A stretch of 64,000 nucleotides of DNA from Escherichia coli (GTDB lineage: Bacteria; Pseudomonadota; Gammaproteobacteria; Enterobacterales; Enterobacteriaceae). Under the pieces are notes generated by a model that saw only the letters and a list, made by a program, of their open reading frames with translations, did not search any database and was not told the DNA's origin. Shown in pieces: positions 3,198 through 37,867 of this stretch (positions within the stretch are counted from its first letter, which is position 1; each line of letters opens with the position of its first letter). A program made the position numbers and the translations under genes. Location of the stretch: the NCBI RefSeq assembly GCF_045037415.1, contig NZ_CP173438.1; one strand, given 5' to 3'.

Positions 3198-4268
3198 TTA
3201 CTCCCCAACGCGCTCATTAATTGCCTGCGGATTGTACGTGATAAACATCGCATCACCGTAACTAAAAAAGCGATATTTCTCTTCTACCGCCGCTTTATAG
3301 GCATTCATGGTGTGTTGATAACCAGCAAATGCCGAAACCAGCATAATCAGCGTCGATTCCGGAAGGTGGAAGTTCGTCACCAGCGCATCGACCACTTTGT
3401 ACTGGAAGCCCGGATAGATAAAGATTTGGGTATCGTCAAAGAACGGTTCAATGAGATCGTTTTTCGCTGCCTGAGCCGCACTTTCCAGCGAACGTACTGA
3501 GGTGGTGCCAACCGCAATCACCCGGTTACCGCGCGCTTTCGCCGCCAGTACCGCGTCTACCACATCCTGCGGCACTTCAGCGTATTCCGAGTGCATGATG
3601 TGATCTTCAATGGTGTCGACGCGCACCGGCTGGAAGGTGCCCGCACCAACGTGCAACGTCACAAACGCCATCTCCACGCCTTTGGCGCGTAATTTTTCCA
3701 GCAAAGGTTCGTCAAAGTGCAGTCCGGCGGTCGGTGCTGCTACCGCGCCGGGTTTTTCGCTATAAACCGTTTGATAAAGTTCGCGGTCTGCATCTTCGTC
3801 CGGACGGTCGATGTACGGCGGCAGCGGCATATGGCCGATGCTGTTGAGAATATCCAGCACCGAACGTTGATCATTAAATTCGACTTCAAACAGTGCGCCG
3901 TGGCGCGCGGTCATTGTTGCGTTAATACTTTCGTCATCGCCCAGCAGCAGTTCTGCGCCAGGTTTTGGCGCTTTCGAGGCGCGAATATGCGCAAGAATGC
4001 GTTTGTCGTCGAGCATCCGCTCAACCAGCACTTCAATCTTGCCGCCGCTGGCTTTACGCCCAAACAGACGCGCCGGGATCACGCGGGTATTATTAAAAAC
4101 CAGAAGATCGCCGGGGTTGAGCTTATCGAGTAAATCGGTGAAAGTACCGTGCGTCAGCGCGCCCGTCGGCCCGTCCAGCGACAGTAAACGACAGCTACTG
4201 CGTTCAGGCATGGGATAGTGGGCAATCAGGGATTCGGGCAATTCAAAAGAGAAATCGGTAACGCGCAT
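3198..4268 (-). CDS. queA: S-adenosylmethionine:tRNA ribosyltransferase-isomerase, 356 aa
   Basis: ORF translation [29 protein letters not shown]...; upstream of tgt in the same orientation. Confidence 0.96.
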
Positions 4269-4360
4269 GACACTGACTCAGACTAAAATAAGAGGCGGGT
4301 AGTCTAGTGCCGGGGCGCTCTCCCTGCAACCTTTACCCCCCTTTGGATAGAATATAATCG

Positions 4361-16500: not shown

Positions 16501-16669
16501 GCTGGATACCGCCCTTGATGCGTTGGATGCCCTGAATGCCAGTGGCAAAACCATCGGGGTGATTAGCCACGTTGAAGCGATGAAAGAGCGTATTCCGGTG
16601 CAGATCAAAGTGAAGAAGATCAATGGACTGGGCTACAGCAAACTGGAAAGTGCGTTTGCAGTGAAATAA
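13526..16669 (+). CDS. sbcC: Nuclease SbcCD subunit C (Rad50-like SMC ATPase), 1047 aa
   Basis: ORF translation [50 protein letters not shown]... (Walker A); long Q/E/L-rich coiled coil; CPLCG zinc-hook motif at 15041..15055; C-terminal signature LSGGESF and Walker [11 protein letters not shown]; start overlaps the sbcD stop (ATGA). Confidence 0.96.
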
Positions 16670-16794
16670 CTATTCAGCAGGATAATGAATACAGAGGGGC
16701 GAATTATCTCTTGGCCCGACTGGTCGTTATCCTGCAAGCTATCACTTTATTGGCTACGGTGATTGGTAGCCGTTCTGGTGGTTGTGATGGTGGT

Positions 16795-17979
16795 ATGAAA
16801 AAAGTTATTTTATCTTTGGCTCTGGGCACGTTTGGTTTGGGGATGGCCGAATTTGGCATTATGGGCGTGCTCACGGAGCTGGCGCATAACGTAGGAATTT
16901 CGATTCCTGCCGCCGGGCATATGATCTCGTATTATGCGCTGGGGGTGGTGGTCGGTGCGCCAATCATCGCGCTTTTTTCCAGTCGCTACTCACTCAAACA
17001 TATCTTGTTGTTTCTGGTGGCGTTGTGCGTCATTGGCAACGCCATGTTCACGCTCTCTTCGTCTTACCTGATGCTCGCCATTGGTCGGCTGGTTTCCGGC
17101 TTCCCGCATGGTGCATTTTTTGGCGTCGGCGCGATCGTGTTATCAAAAATTATCAAACCCGGCAAAGTCACCGCCGCCGTGGCAGGGATGGTTTCCGGGA
17201 TGACAGTCGCCAATTTGCTGGGCATTCCACTGGGAACGTATTTAAGTCAGGAATTTAGCTGGCGTTACACCTTTTTGTTGATCGCTATTTTTAATATTGC
17301 GGTGATGGCATCGGTCTATTTTTGGGTGCCGGATATTCGCGACGAGGCGAAAGGAAAACTACGCGAACAATTTCACTTTTTACGCAGCCCTGCCCCGTGG
17401 TTAATTTTCGCTGCTACGATGTTTGGCAACGCAGGTGTGTTTGCCTGGTTCAGCTACGTAAAGCCATACATGATGTTTATTTCCGGTTTTTCGGAAACGG
17501 CGATGACCTTTATTATGATGTTAGTTGGGCTAGGGATGGTGCTGGGGAATATGCTAAGTGGCAGGATTTCAGGACGTTATTCACCACTGCGCATTGCAGC
17601 AGTGACTGACTTTATCATTGTACTGGCACTGCTGATGCTCTTTTTCTTCGGCGGTATGAAAACAACGTCGCTTATTTTTGCTTTTATTTGTTGCGCGGGA
17701 TTATTTGCCCTTTCAGCACCTCTACAAATATTATTACTGCAAAATGCCAAAGGCGGAGAGTTATTAGGTGCCGCAGGTGGGCAAATAGCGTTTAACCTCG
17801 GTAGCGCCGTCGGCGCATATTGCGGTGGTATGATGCTGACGCTGGGGCTGGCATATAATTACGTGGCGCTGCCCGCCGCCCTGCTTTCGTTTGCTGCGAT
17901 GTCGTCGTTGCTGCTGTATGGTCGCTATAAGCGCCAGCAAGCGGCGGATAGTCCGGTGCTGGCGAAACCACTGGGGTAG
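16795..17979 (+). CDS. araJ: MFS transporter AraJ, 394 aa
   Basis: ORF 16711..17979; internal Met gives MKKVILSLALGTFGLGMAEFGIMGVLTELAHNVGISIPAAGHMISYYALG...; start chosen at 16795. Confidence 0.9.
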   Translation: MKKVILSLALGTFGLGMAEFGIMGVLTELAHNVGISIPAAGHMISYYALGVVVGAPIIALFSSRYSLKHILLFLVALCVIGNAMFTLSSSYLMLAIGRLVSGFPHGAFFGVGAIVLSKIIKPGKVTAAVAGMVSGMTVANLLGIPLGTYLSQEFSWRYTFLLIAIFNIAVMASVYFWVPDIRDEAKGKLREQFHFLRSPAPWLIFAATMFGNAGVFAWFSYVKPYMMFISGFSETAMTFIMMLVGLGMVLGNMLSGRISGRYSPLRIAAVTDFIIVLALLMLFFFGGMKTTSLIFAFICCAGLFALSAPLQILLLQNAKGGELLGAAGGQIAFNLGSAVGAYCGGMMLTLGLAYNYVALPAALLSFAAMSSLLLYGRYKRQQAADSPVLAKPLG

Positions 17980-23655: not shown

Positions 23656-24465
23656 ATGGAAAAGAAAATCGGTTTTATTGGCTGCGGCAATATGGGAAAA
23701 GCCATTCTCGGCGGTCTGATTGCCAGCGGTCAGGTGCTTCCAGGGCAAATCTGGGTATATACCCCCTCCCCGGATAAAGTCACCGCCCTGCATGAACAGT
23801 TCGGCATCAACGCCGCAGAATCGGCGCAAGAAGTAGCGCAAATCGCCGACATCATTTTTGCCGCCGTTAAACCAGGCATCATGATTAAAGTGCTTAGCGA
23901 AATCACCTCCAGCCTGAATAAAGACTCTCTGGTCGTTTCTATTGCTGCAGGTATCACGCTCGACCAGCTTGCCCGCGCGCTGGGCCATGACCGGAAAATT
24001 ATCCGCGCCATGCCGAACACTCCCGCGCTGGTTAATGCCGGGATGACCTCCGTAACGCCAAACGCGCTGGTAACCCCAGAAGATACCGCTGATGTGCTGA
24101 ATATTTTCCGCTGCTTTGGCGAAGCGGAAGTGATTGCTGAGCCGATGATCCACCCGGTGGTCGGTGTGAGCGGTTCTTCGCCAGCCTACGTCTTTATGTT
24201 TATCGAAGCGATGGCCGACGCCGCCGTGCTGGGCGGGATGCCACGCGCCCAGGCGTATAAATTTGCCGCTCAGGCGGTAATGGGCTCCGCAAAAATGGTG
24301 CTGGAAACGGGAGAACATCCGGGAACACTGAAAGATATGGTCTGCTCACCGGGAGGCACCACCATTGAGGCGGTACGCGTACTGGAAGAGAAAGGCTTCC
24401 GTGCCGCAGTGATCGAAGCGATGACGAAGTGTATGGAAAAATCAGAAAAACTCAGCAAATCCTGA
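23656..24465 (+). CDS. proC: Pyrroline-5-carboxylate reductase, 269 aa
   Basis: ORF 23548..24465; internal Met gives [41 protein letters not shown]... (NADP Rossmann GxGxxG). Confidence 0.95.
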
Positions 24466-24481
24466 TGGCTTTTGCCGGACG

Positions 24482-25597
24482 TCAGGCCGCCACTTCGGTG
24501 CGGTTACGTCCGGCTTTCTTTGCTTTGTAGAGCGCCAAATCTGCCGATTTCAACCACTCGCGATAGTGACTCATTTGTGGATTCAGCGGCGCAACCCCCA
24601 CACTAATCCGTAAAGTTACCTGTGGCGTATTCGGCAAGCGTAACGTGTTTAGCCCTTCATGCACCCGTAACATGGCGGTGATGGCGCTCTCAGCTGGCGT
24701 ACCGGACATGATTACTGCAAACTCATCGCCGCCAAACCGACCAATCACATCGCTACCGCGCAGGGTAATTTGTAACTGTCGGGTAAGCGCCACAATCGCT
24801 TCATCACCCACATCATGGCCCCAGGTATCGTTGATGCTCTTGAAATGGTCGATATCGATAATCAGTAACGTTGCATCGCGATTATGCCGCCGACAGTTAT
24901 CAAATTCATTGCGTAACATAGTTTCCCAATGACGTCTGTTATACACGCCCGTCATACCGTCGCGGGTACTCATGACCTGCAACCTGCGTTTATGTTCCGC
25001 CAGTTTAGTCGCCGTCTGGTAGCTGACCCAGCCAAACAGCAGAGGATAAATGACAATAATGGGAAGGGAGAGCCACCATTCCAGCGGTGCGCTATTGAAC
25101 GACACGGTGATGCCCGTCAGTTCGAGGGTGACAAGGCAGGAAACCACCATCAACACCAGACCCGCAACAAACAGACGGGGGCCGCCTGCCCCCATCAAAT
25201 TCAGACACATAATCATCAACATCGCGGTGGAAGGCAGCACGTTTACGCCCATTACGCCTACCCACATTCCCGCTAATACTGCATCGGTTTTTAAGTTGTA
25301 AATTTCCCGGCTAAGCGGATCGACGGCCCTGCTCGCTATCTGCCAGGCTAAATGCGGCCAGACGAACGCCCAGCCGACCAACACCAGCCACCACCAGCCC
25401 GGCGGCGGGTGCGAAACCAGCGTTGAAGCAATCGGTAAGAACATGCCAGCCAGACCAACCGCGCGGGGTAGTCTGACGCGACGGGCGAAGCGCAGCCCGG
25501 ACCGCTGATGTTCGTTTTGAGGAGTTAAAGGAGGTTCCTCCCCATGCGCCGCCGCTTTTTTGAAAAAGTTTTCATCATTCATTATTTTTGGGAACAT
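24482..25597 (-). CDS. dgcC: Diguanylate cyclase DgcC (AdrA/YaiC) with MASE2 membrane domain and GGDEF domain, 371 aa
   Basis: ORF translation with hydrophobic N-terminal half and C-terminal ...RDGMTGVYNRRHWE...DIDHFKSINDTWGHDVGD...RFGGDEFAVIM... (GGDEF active site). Confidence 0.95.
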   Translation of the reverse strand: MFPKIMNDENFFKKAAAHGEEPPLTPQNEHQRSGLRFARRVRLPRAVGLAGMFLPIASTLVSHPPPGWWWLVLVGWAFVWPHLAWQIASRAVDPLSREIYNLKTDAVLAGMWVGVMGVNVLPSTAMLMIMCLNLMGAGGPRLFVAGLVLMVVSCLVTLELTGITVSFNSAPLEWWLSLPIIVIYPLLFGWVSYQTATKLAEHKRRLQVMSTRDGMTGVYNRRHWETMLRNEFDNCRRHNRDATLLIIDIDHFKSINDTWGHDVGDEAIVALTRQLQITLRGSDVIGRFGGDEFAVIMSGTPAESAITAMLRVHEGLNTLRLPNTPQVTLRISVGVAPLNPQMSHYREWLKSADLALYKAKKAGRNRTEVAA

Positions 25598-28376: not shown

Positions 28377-29471
28377 ATGGAAAAACTGCGGGTAGGAATC
28401 GTTTTTGGTGGTAAATCAGCGGAACATGAAGTGTCTCTGCAATCGGCAAAAAACATTGTCGATGCCATTGATAAAAGTCGCTTCGATGTTGTGCTGCTGG
28501 GCATTGATAAACAAGGGCAATGGCACGTCAGCGATGCCAGCAATTATCTGCTAAATGCAGACGATCCTGCCCATATTGCGTTGCGTCCTTCGGCGACCAG
28601 CCTTGCGCAGGTGCCAGGTAAACATGAGCATCAGCTTATCGACGCACAAAACGGTCAGCCGTTGCCGACGGTGGATGTCATTTTCCCGATTGTCCACGGT
28701 ACGCTGGGCGAAGATGGTTCCTTGCAGGGAATGCTGCGGGTCGCCAATTTACCGTTTGTAGGTTCTGATGTTCTGGCTTCAGCGGCCTGTATGGATAAAG
28801 ATGTCACCAAACGTCTGCTGCGCGATGCCGGGCTGAACATTGCGCCATTTATTACCCTGACGCGCGCTAATCGTCACAACATCAGTTTTGCCGAAGTGGA
28901 GTCTAAACTGGGGTTACCGCTGTTTGTAAAACCGGCTAATCAGGGCTCTTCTGTTGGTGTCAGCAAAGTAACCAGTGAAGAACAGTACACAATTGCCGTC
29001 GATCTGGCGTTCGAGTTCGATCATAAAGTGATCGTTGAGCAAGGGATCAAAGGTCGTGAAATCGAATGCGCAGTTCTTGGCAACAATAACCCGCAAGCAA
29101 GCACCTGTGGCGAGATCGTACTCACCAGCGATTTCTATGCCTACGACACCAAGTACATTGACGAAGATGGCGCGAAAGTGGTAGTTCCGGCAGCCATTGC
29201 GCCAGAAATCAACGATAAGATCCGGGCGATTGCCGTTCAGGCTTATCAGACGTTGGGATGCGCAGGCATGGCGCGTGTAGACGTGTTTTTAACCCCAGAG
29301 AACGAAGTGGTGATCAACGAGATCAACACCCTGCCTGGCTTCACCAACATCAGTATGTATCCGAAGCTGTGGCAAGCCAGCGGTCTGGGTTACACCGACC
29401 TGATCACGCGTTTGATTGAGCTGGCGCTGGAGCGTCACGCTGCGGATAACGCACTGAAAACCACAATGTAA
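28377..29471 (+). CDS. ddlA: D-alanine--D-alanine ligase A, 364 aa
   Basis: ORF translation [50 protein letters not shown]... (ATP-grasp). Confidence 0.96.
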
Positions 29472-29476
29472 TATTC

Positions 29477-29515
29477 AAACGCCCGGTAATATTCTTATTG
29501 GGCGTTTTCAGTTTC
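29477..29515 (+). terminator. Putative rho-independent terminator of ddlA (overlaps the 3' end of convergent yaiZ)
   Basis: Hairpin AAACGCCC-N15-GGGCGTTTT followed by a T-rich tail, 6 bp after the ddlA stop. Confidence 0.5.
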
Positions 29516-33012: not shown

Positions 33013-34170
33013 TTGAAACGTAGTCTGCTTTTTTCTGCCGTGCTGTATTCGGCGTCATTGACCTCCGTCCATGCGGCTCAGCCGATCACTGAACCGGAGT
33101 TTGCCTCTGATATTGTCGATCGTTATGCCGATCATATTTTTTACGGCAGCGGTGCCACGGGGATGGCGCTGGTTGTTATCGACGGTAACCAGCGCGTCTT
33201 TCGCAGTTATGGCGAAACGCGACCTGGTAATAACGTTCGCCCGCAGCTGGATTCCGTCATACGTATTGCTTCCCTCACCAAGTTAATGACCAGTGAGATG
33301 CTGGTAAAATTGCTCGACCAGGGGACCGTGAAGTTAAACGATCCGCTAAGTAAATATGCTCCGCCAGGCGCACGCGTACCGACCTACAATGGGACGCCCA
33401 TTACGCTGGTGAATCTGGCAACCCATACCAGCGCCCTGCCCCGTGAACAGCCCGGTGGCGCGGCACATCGTCCGGTATTTGTCTGGCCAACGCGCGAGCA
33501 ACGCTGGAAATACCTTTCCACTGCCAAACTAAAAGCCGCGCCGGGCAGCCAGGCCGCGTACTCCAACCTCGCATTCGATCTGCTGGCAGATGCACTGGCG
33601 AATGCGTCCGGCAAGCCTTATACCCAGTTGTTTGAAGAGCAGATTACCCGTCCGTTGGGGATGAAAGACACCACCTACACCCCCTCACCGGATCAGTGCC
33701 GCCGTTTAATGGTTGCTGAGCGCGGTGCCAGTCCGTGCAATAACACGCTGGCGGCAATTGGCAGCGGCGGCGTCTATTCCACGCCAGGCGATATGATGCG
33801 CTGGATGCAGCAGTATTTGTCATCTGATTTTTATCAACGCAGTAACCAGGCTGATCGCATGCAGACGTTGATTTATCAGCGCGCGCAGTTTACAAAAGTG
33901 ATTGGCATGGATGTCCCCGGCAAAGCGGATGCGCTTGGTTTAGGCTGGGTATATATGGCCCCGAAAGAGGGTCGTCCGGGGATTATTCAGAAGACAGGTG
34001 GTGGTGGCGGTTTCATTACCTATATGGCGATGATCCCGCAGAAGAATATTGGTGCGTTTGTGGTGGTCACTCGTTCGCCGTTGACGCGCTTTAAAAATAT
34101 GAGCGATGGCATCAATGACCTGGTGACCGAGCTAAGCGGGAATAAACCGTTGGTTATCCCCGCATCCTGA
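33013..34170 (+). CDS. ampH: Penicillin-binding protein AmpH (class C beta-lactamase fold), 385 aa
   Basis: ORF translation MKRSLLFSAVLYSASLTSVHAAQPITEPEF... with SxxK motif (IASLTKLM) and signal peptide. Confidence 0.95.
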   Translation: MKRSLLFSAVLYSASLTSVHAAQPITEPEFASDIVDRYADHIFYGSGATGMALVVIDGNQRVFRSYGETRPGNNVRPQLDSVIRIASLTKLMTSEMLVKLLDQGTVKLNDPLSKYAPPGARVPTYNGTPITLVNLATHTSALPREQPGGAAHRPVFVWPTREQRWKYLSTAKLKAAPGSQAAYSNLAFDLLADALANASGKPYTQLFEEQITRPLGMKDTTYTPSPDQCRRLMVAERGASPCNNTLAAIGSGGVYSTPGDMMRWMQQYLSSDFYQRSNQADRMQTLIYQRAQFTKVIGMDVPGKADALGLGWVYMAPKEGRPGIIQKTGGGGGFITYMAMIPQKNIGAFVVVTRSPLTRFKNMSDGINDLVTELSGNKPLVIPAS

Positions 34171-34857
<687 letters not shown>

Positions 34858-34858
34858 T

Positions 34859-37867
<3,009 letters not shown>

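Follow-up and report, generated by a model that had tools for sequence, protein, structure and literature searches.

The locus studied here raises a simple question: how do two convergent genes end their transcripts when no DNA lies between them? In the window, a stretch of 64,000 nt of Escherichia coli DNA, ampH (33013..34170, + strand), encoding a DD-carboxypeptidase/endopeptidase of 385 aa, faces iprA (34171..34794, − strand), encoding a Crp-like winged-helix regulator of 207 aa. The plus strand reads ...gca tcc TGA|TTA ata ctc... over 34162-34179. The TGA that closes the 385-aa ampH reading frame (34168-34170) and the TAA of iprA (the complement of TTA at 34171-34173) therefore abut, with a spacer of 0 nt. 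A first-pass annotation, which used the old gene name yaiV for what is now iprA, had noticed the adjacent stops and argued that they leave no room for separate intergenic terminators. From this it concluded that the two transcripts must overlap at their 3′ ends or share a bidirectional terminator inside coding sequence, with possible transcriptional interference, unless the frame or end of yaiV was wrong. The adjacency itself was borne out by the sequence and by two RefSeq annotations with identical ends, those of strain SK1144 (100% identity over the 2.1 kb compared; ampH 33013-34170, iprA 34171-34794) and of K-12 MG1655 (iprA 394506-395129, +; ampH 395130-396287, −), and with it the absence of room for terminators between the genes. 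Relative to K-12, the window runs in reverse complement, and positions convert as window = 34171 + (395129 − K-12 coordinate).

Both genes could be assigned with confidence. The 385-aa plus-strand reading frame carries a Beta-lactamase domain (Pfam PF00144, E 1e-67), and its RefSeq name and its named orthologues, which are 85-92% identical, identify it as AmpH, a class C-like penicillin-binding protein. The minus-strand frame has a C-terminal winged-helix domain, HTH_46 (PF15977, E 6e-31, residues 153-220 of a 222-aa frame), a length of about 207 aa and 98% identity to proteins named IprA. The 222-aa frame is the longest one at this position, and its 5′ end lies beyond that of the real 207-aa gene; IprA homologues start at the methionine of the 207-aa form. 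Across 16 genera, homologues can be aligned gap-free as far as the final residue (...GKLVxINRLPSEY*), the ending ...NRLPSEY* is kept across about 77 orthologous loci, and the AmpH C-terminus ...VIPAS* is common to most genera. Conservation of the two C-termini right up to their final residues, in many genera, shows that both gene ends are real. The ampH-iprA locus was found in 5387 of 5426 complete E. coli genomes.

To see how tight and how old the junction is, we searched one genome for each species, which yielded 80 IprA loci from Enterobacteriaceae, of which 76 were interpretable; at the other four the locus was rearranged or interrupted. ampH was convergent and directly downstream of iprA in all 76. 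The stop-to-stop spacer fell between −4 and +5 nt in 68 of the 76: it was −4 nt in 15 loci, where TTAA is shared, 0 nt in 14, and 1-5 nt in 39. Six loci had spacers of 13-17 nt, and single loci had 39 nt (Buttiauxella) and 44 nt (Salmonella diarizonae). The Cronobacter spacer, fetched separately, is 34 nt. Judged from this distribution of spacers across Enterobacteriaceae sequences, the tight packing of ampH and iprA is ancient. Within the ten convergent pairs of this window, our sample for comparing spacers, the distances were 0, 4, 16, 23, 39, 58, 77, 80, 120, and 124 nt, and the zero spacer is the extreme of a continuum and not an outlier.

Immediately beyond the ampH stop, the plus strand encodes a stem-loop of 37 nt, termed here hairpin A (34180..34216, +), which we identified by folding, covariation, and codon entropy as a candidate ampH terminator. 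It starts 9 nt 3′ of the stop and consists of an 8-bp core helix (34183-34190 with 34206-34213; GGCAAAC/GUUUGCC, extended on either side), an inner stem (34191-34195 with 34200-34204), a loop of 4 nt (34196-34199), and a bulged A (34205); besides the bulge, the stem carries a U-G pair. A U-rich tail, UUUAUUCAUUU, occupies 34213..34223 (+; recognized from the sequence and from per-species U counts), its first three U also being paired. Hairpin A is encoded by DNA that, on the opposite strand, forms iprA codons 193-204 (N K G K L V A I N R L P) and specifies IprA residues N193-P204, NKGKLVAINRLP. On the ampH strand the hairpin folds at −20.9 kcal/mol (z −4.85) and accounts for 73% of the ensemble, none of 200 shuffled sequences folding as well; it is a stable, G+C-containing stem-loop. 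Read on the iprA strand, the same segment reaches −14.8 kcal/mol (z −3.0). The 14 nt counted from the last stem pairs hold eight U in Escherichia (UUUAUUCAUUUCGA), six to nine in Citrobacter, Salmonella, and Kluyvera, and three to five in the Enterobacter clade. Two features of this tail count against hairpin A as a terminator, namely that UUUAUUCAUUU is interrupted and that the Enterobacter clade is U-poor (3-5 U of 14). A search of Rfam over 33700-34600 returned no match at E ≤ 1. A simple promoter and terminator scan, whose total matches were no more numerous than in shuffled sequence, found only the inner 5-bp stem and missed the full hairpin because of the bulge.

Published transcript data place the end of the ampH RNA at this structure. 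The TRS study, an RNAtag-seq and Term-seq analysis of K-12 (Nat Commun 2023, PMC10687069), lists a 'Primary' ampH 3′ terminus at K-12 395076-395085 with its peak at 395079/395078 (Supplementary Data 2 and 3), which corresponds to 34215..34224 on the plus strand of the window, with a peak at 34221/34222. This end lies downstream of the same-strand stop codon by 51-52 nt and follows the stem by 5-6 nt, inside the U-rich tail; the TRS table prints hairpin A itself, at −20.9 kcal/mol. The ampH mRNA thus has a 3′ UTR of 51-52 nt antisense to iprA, and the overlap postulated by the first-pass annotation holds on the ampH side. Clean Term-seq termination upstream of the overlap, the result that it had named as refuting its proposal, was in effect looked for in this data set, and the mapped 3′ end lies inside the overlap. 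Its idea of a terminator inside coding sequence also stands for ampH, the element lying within the last 15 codons of iprA, though not in the form of a shared bidirectional element (see below). The same study gives read starts per nucleotide of 0.29-0.48 in the 52-nt 3′ UTR and 0.12-0.14 in the coding sequence. It also lists a second 3′ terminus on the ampH strand (K-12 395127-395135, peak 395130; window 34165..34173, peak 34170), whose peak is the last base of the TGA, at the abutting stops. By SMRT-Cappable-seq (Yan 2018), ampH is transcribed monocistronically from starts at 396318, 396319, and 396363.

Other data sets are less favorable to a tight terminator. The Term-seq tables of Adams et al. 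2021, covering three conditions, list no 3′ end at hairpin A, which counts against it, and TERMITe holds no entry for ampH-iprA 3′ ends. Adams et al. 2021 also called a Rho termination region on the ampH strand at K-12 395316 (window 33984), a borderline call (p 5.5e-5, threshold 1e-4) with a resolution of 800 nt. Their DirectRNA-seq coverage of the ampH strand in 800-nt windows was 56 upstream and 57 downstream of this position without bicyclomycin, and 98 upstream and 247 downstream (2.5 times more) with the drug. Because downstream coverage was undiminished, termination at hairpin A may be leaky, or antisense transcripts may start within iprA. RNA antisense to iprA accordingly exceeds what a tight terminator would leave, through read-through or separate antisense starts.

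Further evidence on hairpin A comes from its evolution. We aligned the last 26 iprA codons from 77 distinct Enterobacteriaceae species sequences (alignment A2). Read on the ampH strand, 614 of 616 cells of the 8-bp core are paired, and read on the iprA strand 597 of 616 are; these cell counts overstate the number of independent events, as the 77 species are related. One pair is AU in 54 species, GC in 20, and GU in 3, reflecting a synonymous exchange of AAA..CGU for AAG..CGC; another is AU in 43 and GC in 32; and in Pluralibacter GGU..UUA replaces GGC..UUG. Cells changed on both sides numbered 85, compared with 39.6 ± 6 in shuffles, none of 500 of which reached 85. On a neighbor-joining tree built from the remainder of iprA, the AAA/CGU to AAG/CGC pair switched jointly at least seven times.

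The changes are also biased between the two strands. Almost all single-sided changes yield a G-U pair in ampH-sense RNA and, on the iprA strand, a C-A mismatch; ampH-strand wobbles in the core number 18, compared with 1 for the iprA strand, where pairing is lost in 19 of 616 cells. In 58 of the 77 species the ampH strand gives the more stable hairpin. A nonsynonymous replacement of R by H, which on the ampH strand preserves pairing as G-U, arose about five times independently, and the synonymous CTG-to-TTG change that would break a pair on that strand was never seen among the 77 species. Codon choice is constrained as well: normalized codon entropy is 0.44 in the hairpin codons and 0.83 elsewhere in iprA (p = 5e-5), with GGC kept by 74 of 76 and TTG, a rare codon, by 67 of 76, and only 2 of 3000 synonymous recodings of the hairpin peptide fold equally well. 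Within the species, 5389 of 5411 E. coli records share an identical 51-nt hairpin segment, compared with 1041 of 4675 for a control segment of iprA located 125 nt further in. Two other readings of the inverted repeat were rejected. A DNA palindrome or protein-binding site is excluded by the strand-specific G-U wobbles and the compensatory changes, which are signatures of RNA. A feature of the iprA message is excluded as well, the hairpin lying inside the translated region and ending 9 nt before the stop, and single-sided changes disrupting its pairing on the iprA strand.

Natural controls point in the same direction, with one exception. Cronobacter and Buttiauxella have their own bidirectional terminator in the spacer, and their hairpin A has weakened to −9.9 and −5.6 kcal/mol, respectively. 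Citrobacter farmeri/amalonaticus carries, elsewhere in the genome, a second pair consisting of an autotransporter and an iprA-like gene; in this paralogue, which does not adjoin ampH, the hairpin folds at −9.1 and −5.8 kcal/mol. The peptide is largely retained in all of these cases where the hairpin decays. The weakest hairpin A among species with a tight junction, by comparison, is −14.1 kcal/mol. Salmonella counts against the pattern: a spacer terminator is present, and hairpin A is still kept (−16.1 kcal/mol). Decay thus occurred in two of the three lineages having a spacer terminator.

We consider it likely that the ampH 3′ end is set by hairpin A, embedded inside iprA, and that iprA has no part in its use. 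With no spacer between the genes, the end signal of ampH would have been accommodated inside its neighbor. In the mechanism that we propose, RNA polymerase transcribing ampH would pass the TGA, go on for 9 nt, make the 37-nt hairpin (34180-34216) and then UUUAUUCAUUU, and the RNA would end at about 34221. Hairpin A resembles a Rho-independent terminator, and we infer that the 34221 end arises through intrinsic termination; the hairpin would also leave a stable 3′ stem-loop on the message. Selection would act on both readings of the DNA, keeping the amino acids and either fixing the synonymous positions or allowing them to change in compensating pairs, with the hairpin serving ampH alone. Transcripts of iprA would run beyond their own stop into ampH antisense, where they would meet first a lineage-restricted hairpin and then a stretch suited to Rho. 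When both genes are on, the RNAs would overlap by at least about 50 nt. The arrangement (in the reference annotation) and the ampH 3′ end (in the published table) were already on record; what is new here is the proof, by sequence comparison, of selection on the embedded hairpin.

On the iprA side, the candidates are weaker. Hairpin B (34136..34163, −; −14.6 kcal/mol, z −2.3), the lineage-restricted hairpin of the mechanism above, is a candidate 3′ structure for iprA transcripts that lies 7 nt past the iprA stop, within the last 11 codons of ampH, and has no U-tract. It is predicted in Escherichia and some Citrobacter only. As a conserved iprA terminator it was rejected in general, being lineage-restricted with a z of only −2.3, and the two strands fold equally across 77 species (−14.8 and −14.4 kcal/mol). 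Farther on, 120-280 nt past the iprA stop on the iprA-sense RNA, a C-rich, G-poor stretch (33891..34050, −; C/G 1.8-2.5) is a candidate Rho loading region; its composition would suit Rho loading on iprA read-through RNA. Transcripts of iprA would end past their stop, in ampH antisense. No iprA 3′ terminus appears in the tables searched (Adams 2021 and TRS), where only ampH-strand ends are listed, probably because the gene was silent under those conditions. The iprA promoter region is bound by H-NS, and either cysteine or the loss of H-NS induces the gene; this fits its low G+C content (37-43%). Given H-NS binding at the iprA promoter region and the weak expression of ampH, the transcriptional interference raised in the first-pass annotation is probably small under laboratory conditions.

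Among the alternatives, the one that survives best, possible though clearly less likely than intrinsic termination at hairpin A, is that the hairpin is a protective stem-loop: Rho would terminate ampH transcripts further on, where the antisense of iprA goes untranslated, and 3′ exonucleases would trim the RNA back to the hairpin. This overlaps in part with our preferred explanation, in that hairpin A would still serve the ampH 3′ end. The Rho region called on the ampH strand near the gene end, with undiminished coverage downstream, speaks for trimming, as do the U-poor tails of Enterobacter, where the stem is nonetheless conserved and stronger. The excess of read starts in the 52-nt 3′ UTR (0.29-0.48 per nt, compared with 0.12-0.14 in the coding sequence) is likewise as expected for a stable end fragment. 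However, in Escherichia, Citrobacter, Salmonella, and Kluyvera the stem is directly followed by a tail with 6-9 U in 14 nt, and the mapped end, 5-6 nt past the stem and within the tail, has the usual geometry of intrinsic termination; the Rho call, moreover, is borderline (p 5.5e-5 against 1e-4) and resolved only to 800 nt.

A second alternative takes the tail-to-tail overlap to be a regulatory device, a cis-antisense coupling of cell-wall remodeling to an oxidative-stress regulator, which we judge improbable. Equally doubtful in our view are its specific forms, in which the abundant 52-nt ampH 3′ UTR fragment would act as a cis-antisense RNA setting IprA levels, or induced iprA read-through would lower AmpH. 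If it were true, peptidoglycan remodeling would be linked to a peroxide-resistance regulator across the Enterobacteriaceae. Conservation of the arrangement in 76 of 76 interpretable loci speaks for coupling, as do the perfect complementarity, over at least ~50 nt, that joint transcription of the two genes must produce and the greater abundance of the 3′ UTR fragment relative to the coding sequence. Yet conserved synteny of neighboring core genes is the norm in Enterobacteriaceae, and a link between ampH and iprA expression is predicted from the arrangement only. Hairpin A, furthermore, is lost without replacement where a spacer terminator exists, and 3′-end overlap, seen in 75% of convergent E. 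coli operons, has no known function there.

Slightly less credible again is the proposal of the first-pass annotation that the genes share a bidirectional terminator, which here would be hairpin A. The inverted repeat does fold on the iprA strand too (−14.8 kcal/mol, z −3.0), the spacers of Cronobacter and Buttiauxella hold bidirectional hairpin terminators, and overlapping bidirectional terminators are common among E. coli convergent pairs, to go by the SEnd-seq work of Ju et al. 2019 as summarized in bioRxiv 10.1101/2022.10.23.513370. Against this, the core-helix wobbles favor the ampH strand by 18 to 1, that strand folds the more stably in 58 of 77 species, and on the iprA strand 19 of 616 cells lack pairing, which is not the pattern of a helix maintained on both strands. 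A U-rich tail exists on the ampH side only: the iprA-side tail, CAGAGUAUUAA, is not U-rich, and the A-tract/U-tract pair of a bidirectional element is lacking. No iprA 3′ terminus was present in the data sets searched (Adams 2021 and TRS). The stem also ends 9 nt before the iprA stop, and termination 7-9 nt past it would therefore yield iprA messages that lack or barely include their stop codon. The shared element is thus not supported, and a hairpin that serves ampH is preferred.

Finally, an annotation artifact, with a mistaken frame or end for iprA (yaiV) or no translation of the gene, can be dismissed on the sequence evidence: although iprA is AT-rich (37-43% G+C) and H-NS bound, as are many doubtful genes, and its longest reading frame (222 aa) exceeds the real gene at the 5′ end, it encodes a 207-aa protein whose HTH_46 domain extends to the last residues, its ending GKLVxINRLPSEY* is constant in length and sequence in 16 genera and about 77 loci, which refutes the suspected error in its frame or end, and, to judge by the title of one paper, it has reportedly been functionally characterized in Salmonella.

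Convergent pairs commonly have embedded terminators and overlapping 3′ ends, and ampH-iprA is a case of ordinary genome compaction in which the spacer has been dispensed with and the terminator of one gene is written into the codons of the opposite one, with little wider biological import. It does offer a worked example of dual constraint, with a protein on one strand and an RNA structure on the other, and has practical consequences. Synonymous recoding, deletion, or tagging of the iprA 3′ end would probably disturb 3′-end formation of the ampH mRNA, and an iprA knock-out extending as far as the stop codon takes the ampH terminator with it. Embedded elements such as hairpin A escape any terminator predictor that masks coding sequence, and 'silent' sites at convergent gene ends may not be neutral.

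Hairpin A is best compared with the intrinsic terminators of E. coli, with which it shares a stable stem-loop a few nucleotides past the stop, a tail that is U-rich in E. coli, and a 3′ end 5-6 nt after the stem. It differs from the usual ones in lying wholly in the antisense of its neighbor's last 15 codons, and therefore evolves under a double constraint; its U-tract is interrupted and its stem carries a bulge and a U-G pair; termination by polymerase alone is putative. In the model of Dar and Sorek 2018 (as cited in Adams 2021), transcripts terminated by Rho keep a protective stem-loop at the 3′ end; hairpin A resembles these in being a stable hairpin at the mapped 3′ end with a Rho region called nearby. 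It differs in having a U-rich tail in E. coli, and Rho dependence of the 34221 end is putative. The bidirectional terminators of Ju et al. 2019, as relayed in the bioRxiv account, also sit in convergent pairs, with a hairpin where the transcripts would overlap; hairpin A, however, points to a single direction by its strand-specific wobbles and its one-sided U-tail, and lies inside coding sequence and not in a spacer. The true bidirectional type is found at this same junction in Cronobacter and Buttiauxella.

Convergent transcripts that overlap are themselves widespread. Conway et al. 2014 found overlapping 3′ ends in 276 of 370 (75%) convergent E. coli operons, with a mean overlap of 286 nt. 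As in those operons (for example, ilvA-ilvY), the transcript of one gene runs into its convergent neighbor, but the ampH-iprA overlap is forced by the absent spacer and not by leaky termination, and is short and precise (51-52 nt). Tail-to-tail overlapping genes go one step further: in 15 of the 80 loci (Kluyvera, Pseudocitrobacter, Leclercia, some Enterobacter, and others) the stops share a TTAA palindrome and the genes overlap by 4 nt, whereas in E. coli the coding sequences of ampH and iprA touch with 0 nt shared and do not count as overlapping. The nearest likeness within the window is proC-adrA, another tight convergent pair, with a spacer of 16 nt. Its strong proC terminator hairpin (−27.9 kcal/mol, followed by UUUCUUUGCUU) extends into the last codons of adrA and is thus embedded only in part, whereas the hairpin at ampH-iprA lies wholly within its neighbor's coding sequence.

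Among the RNA 3' termini mapped in K-12 (PMC10687069), one on the ampH strand falls at window positions 34165-34173 (+), peaking at 34170, the final base of the ampH stop codon. This terminus lies 8 nt past the ampH-sense form of hairpin B, the hairpin within the last codons of ampH, and is not accompanied by a U-tract. Termination, a collision or pause, cleavage at the stop codon, or an exonuclease stop are all candidate origins. Data collected with and without bicyclomycin place a borderline Rho termination region within ampH, at window 33984 (+) (K-12 395316; score 2.5, p 5.5e-5), and the drug raised iprA-antisense reads 2.5-fold relative to the ampH body (Adams 2021).

At the other end of iprA, the yaiT-iprA spacer contains a strong 13-bp hairpin at 34808-34841 (- strand; stem UAAUGCCCGUCAA, loop GGAU, stem UUGACGGGCAUUA). 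An RNA 3' terminus mapped at K-12 394492, corresponding to window 34808, is very strong and carries the label "5' UTR iprA" (PMC10687069); it precedes the iprA start codon by only 14 nt. An H-NS-associated promoter, TTCACT-18-TTTAAT, lies just upstream (Shimada 2014). The hairpin may serve to terminate yaiT transcripts or act as an attenuator in the iprA leader. The longest iprA ORF is extended by 15 codons, and these encode the hairpin, so the extension is non-coding.

In Citrobacter farmeri and C. amalonaticus, a second autotransporter and iprA-like gene pair resides elsewhere on the chromosome (loci L083 and L084, 30-3624), followed by a lacI-type gene rather than ampH. The product of this second gene shares ~60% identity with IprA, and the hairpin embedded in its codons, the counterpart of the ampH terminator stem-loop, has decayed. 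In C. amalonaticus S646 (locus L009, around 4122-4284), the match to the ampH 3' end extends only ~30 nt past the iprA stop before diverging. The iprA frame is interrupted early in Salmonella arizonae and Enterobacter chuandaensis (L063 and L066), and these copies are possible pseudogenes. A metagenome-derived protein of 259 aa (P0073) matches ~60% of IprA at 99% identity and also has a Beta-lactamase (PF00144) hit; this protein probably represents a chimera spanning the ampH-iprA junction, created during assembly or gene calling.

Besides ampH/iprA, the window holds further tight convergent pairs: acpH/malZ (3507-3512), separated by 4 nt and lacking a strong hairpin; proC/adrA (24465-24511), with a 16-nt spacer and a proC terminator (-27.9 kcal/mol) that extends into the final codons of adrA; and ddlA/yaiZ (29471-29495), whose 23-nt spacer is occupied by a single hairpin. 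The araJ-mak interval carries an insertion of IS1397, an IS3-family element (16622-17970). The autotransporter gene yaiT (34880-37867, - strand; 995 aa) is intact in this strain, in contrast to its K-12 counterpart, a pseudogene split by IS3.
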